Positions 28,345 through 29,906 of a DNA stretch of 42,952 bases are shown piece by piece (within the stretch, counting starts at the first letter, position 1; the number at the start of each line of letters is the position of its first letter). Under the pieces are notes generated by a model. The model did not search any database. It worked only from the letters and a program-made list of their open reading frames with translations, and had not been told where the DNA came from. The DNA comes from a bacterium (GTDB lineage Bacteria > Zhuqueibacterota > QNDG01 > DSAB01): positions 1 through 42,952 of the forward strand of contig JBDRSZ010000164.1 of assembly GCA_043824415.1 (NCBI GenBank). The letters are read 5' to 3'. The position numbers were made by a program, and so were the translations under genes.

Positions 28345-29070
28345 TTATAAATATGCAAAGGCAACTTTAGGCATTCCGTCCCATGTCTTTCCTTTTAATA
28401 AACGACCATTTTTCTTTTTGTTAAAACCGCCCCATTGTTTAAAAAAGAAAGGGATATAATTAGATTCACATTTTTTAAGAATGTCATTAATCCAGTACTC
28501 TTCGATCGGTCTCGCACCTGGACCTGATTCCCCACCAACGATGACCCAATCGATTCCTTTCAAGTTTAAATTGCATATGGGTCCTAATAGAGGTTCCATT
28601 GATAGAAATTTAATAGGTGCAGAAGTTGTTCTAAGATTATCGATTCGATAAATATAATCCTGACTTTCTATAGTCACTCCCATCCATATATTCGGTGTCC
28701 AATTTAGCCTGGGAGCTAATTCGGAAAGTCGATGGGATCGCTTCGTGAGTATTTGAAAAATATGCCATTCCGCTTTATTCATCACTTCGAATATCTTGAT
28801 AATGAAACTGGATGGAACGTCTTCGTGAAACAAGTCGCTCATCGAATTTACAAAAACCATTTGTGGAATTTTCCAATGTAGAGGGATTTCAATTGCATGG
28901 GGATGGAGAGTGATTTTAAATCCATTCTTGTAATTCGGTTGTCCCATAGCCTGTAATCGTTTTGACAACCTTTCTGCGTAACAATTTTTACATCCCAAAC
29001 TGATTTTGGTACAGCCTGTAATAGGATTCCAAGTCGATTCTGTCCATTCAATCAACGATTTAACAGCCAT
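28345..29070 (-). CDS. DUF5131 / phage Gp37-Gp68 family three-Cys-motif protein
   Basis: N-terminus [27 protein letters not shown] (C-x6-C-x2-C). Also [25 protein letters not shown] and FFFKQWGG. The gene is AT-rich. Confidence 0.8.
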   Translation of the reverse strand: [241 protein letters not shown]

Positions 29071-29075
29071 ACAAC

Positions 29076-29906
29076 TTACTCGAATTTACTATATTTTTTA
29101 AAAATATGGTTTATGATATTTAATGCAACTGGTTTTTGAGAAGCGAATATCAAATAGTATATAACTGCGCCGCGAGAATTATACATAGGGTGTGCTTTCG
29201 GTACAATCTTAAATCCAGCTACTTCTTGAAGTCTTTTCCGAAAGGCTTTGACGATTGTTGCATTATCCTCTTTTTCAGGAAATCCAAAAAAATTACTTGT
29301 TGTTGAATAAGCAATCGAACGCCAAGATTCGTCTCCCCAGAAAATATTCATTCGGTGGATACCATTAGAGGGTACACGTTCAGGCTCGCGCCATAAGGCA
29401 TTCCTGTTAATATCCATTACTGGAAAATTGATAAATATATCGATGCTATTCATTTGGCCTGCGGTACGAATTACTTTCCAATCAAGATGCAATCCGTATG
29501 GATCTAAAATGCAGAGGCCTCTACGATAGTCTTTATATTTAACTTTTGGAAAAACTTGTGTTAATAATATTTCGTTGCAATCGCCTTCATAAATATGGAC
29601 GTCAGATCGATCACCGATATTCTCTTTCAAGAAATCGATTCTTTGTTTATCGATATCAATGAGGTAGTATTGACTGAAAGGAGGATTGATCAAGAGTGCA
29701 TTTAACGGACTTCCTTTAACAAAATCACCTGTCTTCTTTGAAATATGTATTCCACTACCGGCGAAGGCATCAATATAGATGTGTGTTAAATTGGATTGTG
29801 AAGCAAGGATTGTTGAGTACTTCGTGGCATATTCTCTGATAATATCGAGTTTTATTTCAGACCAATTTCCAATTTCATCGAACTTTAAATCATCGCTTTT
29901 TCTCAT
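29076..29906 (-). CDS. Three-Cys-motif partner protein TcmP (methyltransferase-like fold)
   Basis: Contains WSEIKLDIIREYATKY, motif-I-like YIDAFAGSGIH, and DPPY-like CILDPYG. It lies 5 nt upstream of the DUF5131 gene, which is the conserved pairing for this family. Confidence 0.7.
   Translation of the reverse strand: MRKSDDLKFDEIGNWSEIKLDIIREYATKYSTILASQSNLTHIYIDAFAGSGIHISKKTGDFVKGSPLNALLINPPFSQYYLIDIDKQRIDFLKENIGDRSDVHIYEGDCNEILLTQVFPKVKYKDYRRGLCILDPYGLHLDWKVIRTAGQMNSIDIFINFPVMDINRNALWREPERVPSNGIHRMNIFWGDESWRSIAYSTTSNFFGFPEKEDNATIVKAFRKRLQEVAGFKIVPKAHPMYNSRGAVIYYLIFASQKPVALNIINHIFKKYSKFE

Follow-up and report, generated by a model that had tools for sequence, protein, structure and literature searches.

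Two candidate defence systems, PDC-M41 and PDC-M30, were defined by the embedding of their genes in BREX, DISARM or type I restriction-modification loci, and are found among 145 untested candidates (Payne et al. 2024, bioRxiv 10.1101/2024.01.29.577857). We analysed a PDC-M41 gene pair, composed of the three-Cys-motif partner gene tcmP and a gene of the DUF5131 (phage Gp37/Gp68) family, in a stretch of 42,952 nucleotides, hereafter the window (positions 1 to 42,952 of contig JBDRSZ010000164.1, assembly GCA_043824415.1, a public metagenome-assembled genome), from a bacterium of the Zhuqueibacterota. This pair has the same two-gene architecture as PDC-M41, without structural difference, but lies alone between housekeeping genes rather than inside BREX, DISARM or type I restriction-modification. 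We propose, with a probability of roughly 0.5, that the two proteins form a two-step, S-adenosylmethionine (SAM)-dependent complex that marks nucleic acid, most probably DNA, in conflicts between phages, mobile elements and hosts.

The two genes, both intact and on the minus strand, make up a cassette of 1.56 kb. The tcmP gene (29076-29906, PDC-M41A in PADLOC) encodes 276 residues, and a 5-nt spacer, GTTGT (29071-29075), separates its TAA stop codon from the ATG of the DUF5131 gene (28345-29070, PDC-M41B), which encodes 241 residues. This layout is the one described in the initial annotation, and the motifs it had read in the two products, YIDAFAGSG and ILDPYG in TcmP and WNPITGC-x6-C-x2-CYAE in the DUF5131 protein, are all present in the translations. 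The pairing it had recognised is also borne out by hidden Markov model (HMM) searches, the check it had suggested, in which both families are matched far above their cutoffs: TcmP matches TIGR04474 with 197.9 bits (cutoff 53; residues 14-272 on profile positions 1-262 of 263), without any Pfam match, and the DUF5131 protein matches PF07505 with 327.3 bits (cutoff 28.9; residues 5-234 on positions 2-243 of 243). The DUF5131 protein also matches phrog_2045 (1.4e-91) and, below threshold, TIGR04471, 'radical SAM mobile pair protein A' (9.9e-20, 70.9 bits against a cutoff of 355, residues 14-212). The PADLOC models cover both proteins over their full length (TcmP, PDLC04638, 6.6e-77; DUF5131, PDLC04639, 6.1e-119), and the DUF5131 protein fits the PDC-M30B model equally well, the B component being common to PDC-M41 and PDC-M30. 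Both genes already carry an NCBI annotation, the pair is 65-72% identical to hundreds of homologues, and the TcmP family comprises 4,669 clusters at the 50% identity level. The window copy is a typical, already catalogued member of a widespread mobile two-gene cassette, and the reading of it in the initial annotation, as a candidate nucleic-acid modification or defence system, is supported.

The AlphaFold2 model of the DUF5131 protein (predicted local distance difference test, pLDDT, 83) is a partial triosephosphate isomerase (TIM) barrel, in which the cysteine motif C20-x6-C27-x2-C30 occupies a loop between β-strand 1 (residues 12-14) and a helix (residues 31-41). C20, C27, and C30 do not vary among 53 aligned homologues, and the mean column identity across phyla is 71%. 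Spore photoproduct lyase is the sole PDB family found by Foldseek at E <= 1e-3 (4k9r, E 6.1e-4, template modelling score TMq 0.55); LIAS and NifB give weaker matches. Like spore photoproduct lyase (4k9r, 4fhc), the DUF5131 protein combines a partial TIM barrel with a cysteine triad after β-strand 1, whereas the two are only 12-14% identical, give no sequence-profile match, and differ in cysteine spacing (CX6CX2C in DUF5131, CX3CX2C in the lyase). The DUF5131 protein is also about 100 residues shorter and needs a methyltransferase-like partner. In RadicalSAM.org, DUF5131 forms megacluster 5-2, adjacent to spore photoproduct lyase in 5-3, and is listed as a subgroup of SFLD/RadicalSAM.org (PMC9477430). 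A further related system is the radical SAM mobile pair (TIGR04471 A and B), to whose protein A DUF5131 is homologous and which is likewise a two-gene, mobile-element-associated system. Nevertheless, the DUF5131 score is far below the equivalog cutoff of that family, and the partner in the mobile pair, judged by its name, is a second radical SAM protein and not a methyltransferase fold. In the model, the DUF5131 protein resembles a radical-SAM enzyme by its fold, but is not a canonical radical SAM protein by its motif.

TcmP is predicted to adopt a class I SAM-methyltransferase fold closest to that of RlmJ. The best PDB folds found by Foldseek with its AlphaFold2 model (pLDDT 88.5, from a 55-sequence alignment) are Escherichia coli RlmJ structures (6qdx_B, E 6.7e-8, TMq 0.56, probability 1.0), followed by the RlmJ-family (DUF519) structure 2oo3 (TMq 0.57) and by generic class I methyltransferases, many of them likewise with probability 1.0; a fold search against viral structures gives generic methyltransferases only, with TM below 0.5. 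With RlmJ, the 23S rRNA A2030 N6-methyltransferase (6qdx, 4blu), and with 2oo3, TcmP shares the class I fold and an N-terminal helix with a conserved Lys, and its motif IV-like sequence may also be of the Asp-Pro-x-aromatic type. It differs from RlmJ in its low identity (12-14%, with no Pfam or PDB sequence match), in its motif IV, which is D-P-Y-G instead of DPSY, and in being mobile, AT-rich and paired with DUF5131. The glycine-rich motif I is D46-A-F-A-G50-S-G52, within which D46-x-F-x-G50-x-G52 is conserved, and the motif IV-like D135-P-Y-G138 is one residue shorter than (D/N)PP(Y/F/W). When TcmP is aligned with superfamily members that are 18-31% identical (from S. meliloti, Acetobacter, a Synechococcus phage, Gordonia phages and the long M30A type), K19, D46, G50, D135, and G138 are the sole invariant residues across the M41A/M30A superfamily. 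Among the residues essential to RlmJ are an N-terminal Lys and the DPSY Asp; the set conserved in TcmP is what a working RlmJ-type enzyme would be expected to keep. Conservation of TcmP is otherwise high (mean column identity across phyla of 67%) and even, the entropy of ten-residue windows ranging from 0.17 to 1.74 bits, and no hypervariable segment resembling a target-recognition domain is present.

The two genes behave as one unit across genomes. We retrieved 80 genome loci via TcmP (57-65% identity), belonging to more than ten phyla (Acidobacteriota, Verrucomicrobiota, Nitrospirota, Chloroflexota, Planctomycetota, Desulfobacterota, Actinomycetota, Bacteroidota, Omnitrophota, Eremiobacterota, and others), 75 of which leave room to judge the downstream gene. 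In about 70 of these 75, DUF5131 lies directly 3' of tcmP on the same strand. The genes overlap by 1 nt in 36 of the 80 loci and by 4 nt in seven, most others showing a gap of at most 8 nt, and in two genome loci they are convergent. Such overlaps, and the 5-nt spacing in the window, fit translational coupling. In one locus (L033), tcmP and the DUF5131 gene are fused in frame through a linker of 3 residues, and this is the sole fusion that stands as real; two further candidates from 1.84 billion representative proteins were discarded, one (P0456, 552 aa) as a tandem duplication or an assembly artefact and the other (P0417) as frameshift junk. We observe no conserved third gene, the commonest neighbour cluster being present in 9 of the 80 loci, and no conserved non-coding flank, small RNA or operator across about 170 related loci. 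Two loci appear as rare decay states bearing on the toxicity of either gene alone: a tcmP with an in-frame TGA (YR*GLC) beside an intact DUF5131 gene (L022, 10381-10448), and a tcmP without any DUF5131 gene (L019, 10849 onward), a sequencing error in these metagenome-assembled genomes being possible in both cases.

The identity of the partner is less fixed when DUF5131 is taken as the starting point. Among 80 metagenome loci retrieved via DUF5131 (59-69% identity), 69 have room for a neighbour, and 65 of these have a TcmP-superfamily partner beside DUF5131: 48 are M41A-type TcmP, 15 are PDC-M30A and two are other TcmP-like proteins, leaving about four with none. The PDC-M30A paralogue is about 375 aa long, with the motifs IDLFAGPG ... 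FVDPWGY, and is only about 20% identical to the M41A class. The DUF5131 proteins show a mean identity of 62% between the M30A- and M41A-partnered groups and of 62-64% within them, and for 11 of the 15 M30-partnered proteins the nearest neighbour is M41-partnered. The two groups are thus intermixed, and it follows that a highly conserved DUF5131 core exchanged its partner repeatedly. In S. meliloti, the M30A-type partner carries a C-terminal GMT-like winged helix-turn-helix domain (wHTH; PF22560, 30.8 bits).

Several loci place the pair among genes of phage defence. L023 and L031 show the order res(III)-tcmP-DUF5131-mod(III), which reproduces the 'guilt by embedding' logic behind PDC-M41 and PDC-M30; a type III mod gene lies directly downstream of the pair in L060, and an nSTAND3 NTPase gene neighbours it in L048. 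The pair shares with type II and III restriction-modification its compact, mobile methyltransferase-plus-partner design, with the methyltransferase first or convergent and sometimes inside a type III system, but it has no variable target-recognition region and its partner is Fe-S/radical-SAM-like. Neither protein contains a nuclease or helicase domain according to the Pfam, TIGR and PADLOC models. On plasmid pSymA of S. meliloti (L174, NC_003037 1249366-1264256), the order is hna -> tcmP <- M30A-like <- DUF5131 (845, 308, 415, and 272 aa, respectively, the tcmP being of the M41A type), so that two TcmP-superfamily paralogues accompany one DUF5131. In a table of putative transcriptional units, the TcmP gene SMa2243 is given directly under the validated defence gene hna (SMa2245), and both are up about 2-fold in a nolR+ strain (PMC12445080). 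S. meliloti is an experimentally tractable organism for this pair.

Phages and plasmids also carry these genes. Gordonia phage BaxterFox has a TcmP-like gene that overlaps with the end of the gene for the immunity repressor, and facing it is a DUF5131 gene that had not been annotated. In Gordonia phage Jablanski, integrase and repressor flank the pair, which adjoins a RelBE module. Both positions are typical of prophage-expressed genes. The DUF5131 open reading frame (ORF) of BaxterFox (KU963263, about 31.9-32.9 kb; L088 4984-5997, minus strand; 354 bits) runs opposite gp39-gp41 and is convergent with gp42, and the deposited annotation probably miscalls the gp39-gp41 region. We find tcmP on 15 plasmids, ten of them conjugative, and only seven IMG/VR contigs match the subclade of the window. 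DUF5131 occurs in 178 cultured phage genomes among 50,697 phage records, and about 173 of the 178 lack a TcmP-like gene. These solo DUF5131 proteins are longer (304-386 aa) and are found mostly in Mycobacterium, Gordonia and Burkholderia phages, among early replication genes. A C5-cytosine DNA methylase gene is adjacent to DUF5131 in phage Bakery and 0.5-2.2 kb away in Lilas, Cashline, TChen, Phayonce, and Che9c. Since both genes belong to one early-gene arm, this linkage is a weak hint only; C5-cytosine methylase is present in 210 phages, many of them without DUF5131.

We hypothesize that TcmP and the DUF5131 protein form one complex. TcmP would bind SAM and methylate the exocyclic amine of a flipped-out base, and the DUF5131 protein would hold a [4Fe-4S] cluster on C20, C27, and C30 and cleave a second SAM to a 5'-deoxyadenosyl radical, which would initiate hydrogen-abstraction chemistry on that base or on one next to it. 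The mark so produced would label self or give protection in conflicts between phages, mobile elements and hosts. DNA appears a more probable substrate than RNA because the DUF5131 fold is nearest to a DNA-repair enzyme, one M30A-type partner has a wHTH domain, the pair occurs within restriction-modification loci, and the copies in phages are located with replication genes and close to C5-cytosine DNA methylases.

A number of observations weigh against this proposal. The DUF5131 protein has no canonical CX3CX2C motif and no match to the Pfam Radical_SAM family PF04055 at E <= 0.01, and its cysteines could bind zinc instead. Neither protein has a PDB match by sequence or profile, for TcmP even at E <= 10, the structural likeness is modest for both (TM 0.55-0.57), and the closest fold to TcmP is an RNA methyltransferase. 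The motif IV-like sequence also varies across the TcmP superfamily (DQQG, DQCG, DHSG), D and G alone being invariant. The immediate neighbours in the genome loci (n = 148) are mostly housekeeping genes, with four N6/N4 DNA methylases, three ResIII and three nucleotidyltransferases among them. PADLOC model families number 213 near the pair against 61 for genes at least 7 kb away, a crude comparison in which four type III Mod proteins, each matching a large number of models, account for a large part of the excess. The defence-island context is weak in this clade; any enrichment in defence islands is modest and unproven, and we do not claim it. Finally, no experimental work on DUF5131, TcmP, PDC-M41 or PDC-M30 was found in the literature searched, in agreement with the earlier statement that no function has been established.

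An alternative is that the pair is itself a restriction-modification-like or addiction module, in which TcmP would mark resident DNA as self, the DUF5131 protein would damage or block unmarked incoming DNA, and loss of TcmP would be toxic. The methyltransferase-first coupled order and the convergent variants do recall type II layouts (L057, L073, BaxterFox, Jablanski, and the Synechococcus phage), the cassette is an isolated AT-rich insertion without mobility genes, and it is a PADLOC candidate embedded in restriction-modification loci. Nevertheless, DUF5131 stands without a TcmP-like gene in the large majority of its phage records and in about four of the 69 close metagenome loci, and L022 keeps an intact DUF5131 gene beside an interrupted tcmP. 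Nearly identical DUF5131 proteins go with partner classes sharing only about 20% identity, and this is difficult to square with a matched sequence specificity; TcmP has no hypervariable target-recognition region, nor is there a nuclease domain. We consider such a module rather unlikely. The high conservation of both proteins across phyla would fit a universal, invariant substrate, as in an RNA-modification module where TcmP methylates rRNA or tRNA like RlmJ or Trm1, the DUF5131 protein adds a radical-SAM modification like Cfr, RlmN or MiaB, and the outcome is altered translation or resistance to ribosome-targeting antibiotics, ribotoxins or anticodon nucleases. The best structural match of TcmP is indeed the 23S rRNA m6A2030 methyltransferase RlmJ, its D-P-Y-G motif resembles the D-P-F-G motif of Trm1, and most neighbours are housekeeping genes. 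This explanation seems improbable given that the nearest fold to DUF5131 is a DNA enzyme and not RlmN, Cfr or MiaB, that the M30A partner carries a wHTH domain, that the pair lies between res and mod of type III systems, and that the phage copies are found among DNA-replication genes.

A third alternative is a role in repair. The pair is found directly downstream of dnaE2, at the end of an SOS cassette with the order lexA, imuB, a small low-GC ORF, and dnaE2, and the DUF5131 protein could have been co-opted with lexA-imuB-dnaE2 to reverse a pyrimidine lesion by radical chemistry. Its fold likeness to spore photoproduct lyase and the LexA/S24-like repressor genes directly upstream of the pair in L027 and L141 would be in line with this role. 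However, the pair is on the strand opposite to the SOS cassette and has a very different GC content, and the cassette is conserved in relatives without the pair. No ImuB, and no DnaE2 above 34% identity, is encoded near the pair in about 160 other loci, and a repair role leaves the obligate methyltransferase-like partner unexplained. We thus regard this role as highly improbable and reject a functional link to the SOS cassette: the neighbour pointed out in the initial annotation is real, but its adjacency is coincidental as judged from the comparison of loci, and the pair is not part of that cassette.

A more far-reaching reading, which we put forward tentatively and hold to be doubtful, is that the pair would be the first immune or epigenetic system of bacteria based on a radical-SAM-type enzyme that acts directly on DNA. 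Either DUF5131 and an RlmJ-like DNA methyltransferase would jointly write a new hypermodified base, or DUF5131 would be a radical 'restriction' effector restrained by TcmP methylation; in both cases, the exchangeable partner (M41A or M30A-wHTH) would supply the targeting. Should the pair write or attack a mark on DNA, it would represent a new chemical principle for bacterial immunity or epigenetics and a potential source of tool enzymes. DUF5131-TcmP is a large family pair between radical-SAM enzymology and phage defence, and it offers several testable points of attack: folds like those of RlmJ and spore photoproduct lyase, five residues that are invariant in TcmP, the exchange of partners, the natural fusion, the type III embedding, and the lysogeny modules of prophages. 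The window copy has no special feature and is no more tractable than other copies; its value is that of a clean, minimal example.

Horizontal acquisition of the cassette at this site, as proposed before, is supported by its composition and by comparison with relatives. Its GC content (0.354 for tcmP, 0.372 for the DUF5131 gene, 0.27-0.32 for the flanking spacers) is clearly lower than that of dnaE2 (0.606), padR (0.514) and the whole window (0.50), in agreement with the AT-richness noted in the initial annotation. In 70 of 73 loci, the pair has a lower GC content than its flanks, by a median of 6.3 points; with a difference of 18 points, the window copy ranks among the most extreme. Relatives whose DnaE2 is 82-83% identical retain the order lexA-imuB-X-dnaE2, followed by unrelated downstream genes and no tcmP. 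Taken together, the GC deficit of 18 points, the absence from close relatives and the AT bias across loci support acquisition. The nearest DNA relatives of the cassette are only about 66% identical, and there are no tRNA genes in the window. Similarity of the contig to its closest relative (L171, DnaE2 83% identical) ends at the right arm of a GC hairpin, and the acquired DNA therefore starts just right of 28207. An exact empty site was not found in the relatives, and the right junction is undefined because they carry different genes downstream of dnaE2.

This hairpin belongs to a GC-rich host palindrome at the 3' end of dnaE2 (28177-28207, no strand assigned), which marks the left junction and is outside the cassette. 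The hairpin itself (28178-28206), with 14-nt arms that are 100% complementary and 1 nt between them, is as real as first described, but it is a 3' element of the host dnaE2 and not a feature of the islet. A sister hairpin with the same stem consensus and a TCNGA loop is found at 18693-18723, at the 3' end of an OPT transporter gene, the palindrome consensus GTGCGACGCAC-N-TCNGA-N-GTGCGNCGCAC gives nine matches with at most two mismatches against 2.3 expected, and in L171 the dnaE2 stop codon is followed, at a distance of 6 nt, by a degenerate orthologue. We reject a role as boundary element on account of the sister copy and this orthologue. There is no T-run on either strand and a terminator scan did not call the hairpin; the palindrome looks like a REP-like (repetitive extragenic palindromic) host repeat or a terminator without a U-tract. 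Between it and the DUF5131 gene, the downstream non-coding tail (28208-28344, minus strand, 32% GC) contains an 18-nt direct repeat, TT(A/T)AGAAATACAAGGTAA, at 28259-28276 and 28292-28309, and has no homologue in the related loci.

The upstream non-coding region (29907-30165, minus strand, 27% GC) does contain the hairpins of ATCAT/ATGAT half-sites described at first, as overlapping perfect 8-bp inverted repeats (29985-92/30001-08 and 30004-11/30016-23), and four of the seven ATCAT/ATGAT (ATSAT) pentamers of the 1.96-kb islet lie within 29985-30034. A weak promoter-like site, TCGTCA-17-TATGAT (30013-29985), overlaps these repeats. Nothing similar is found upstream of the pair in the other loci (about 170), so any regulation through this region would be local at most. 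About 120 nt upstream of tcmP, the sequence ATTAATGATAATGAATATT (30026-30044) agrees with the E. coli Fur-box consensus at 14 of 19 positions, as compared by eye; iron-responsive control would suit an Fe-S enzyme, and the match could be due to chance in DNA of 27% GC. A 60-nt near-palindrome at 30093-30152, with 30-nt arms that are 80% complementary and two CCGAGAAT(T/C)TCGATA repeats, ends 14 nt before the padR start and is probably a PadR auto-operator separate from the tcmP cassette. In two other loci, one M41-type and one M30-type, genes for LexA/S24-peptidase-like repressors (33-39% identical to the LexA of the window) immediately precede the pair and share its strand (L027 1541-2215 and L141 111-773), which echoes the repressor-then-tcmP order of phage BaxterFox. 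In some lineages, the pair may be under damage-inducible or prophage-type control.

The SOS cassette of the window shows further low-GC DNA. The ORF between imuB and dnaE2 (24613-25071, plus strand) encodes 152 residues with a GxxExxY signature (LGPGYLESVYEDAL) and has a GC content of 0.43, and the same slot is occupied by an unrelated PF01797 Y1-transposase gene in the two nearest relatives, L171 (7499-7765) and L172 (3806-4243). Within the SOS mutagenesis cassette, this position resembles a hot spot of insertion; an imuA-like gene was not seen. Just upstream of lexA lies a second low-GC islet (21031-22581, plus strand), with a DUF559 gene (Vsr-like endonuclease fold, 102.9 bits) adjoined by a 334-aa SIR2-like gene of GC content 0.37 (Pfam SIR2_2, 22.3 bits, below the cutoff; PADLOC SIR2, 5.5e-10). 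This islet may be another defence-type insertion.

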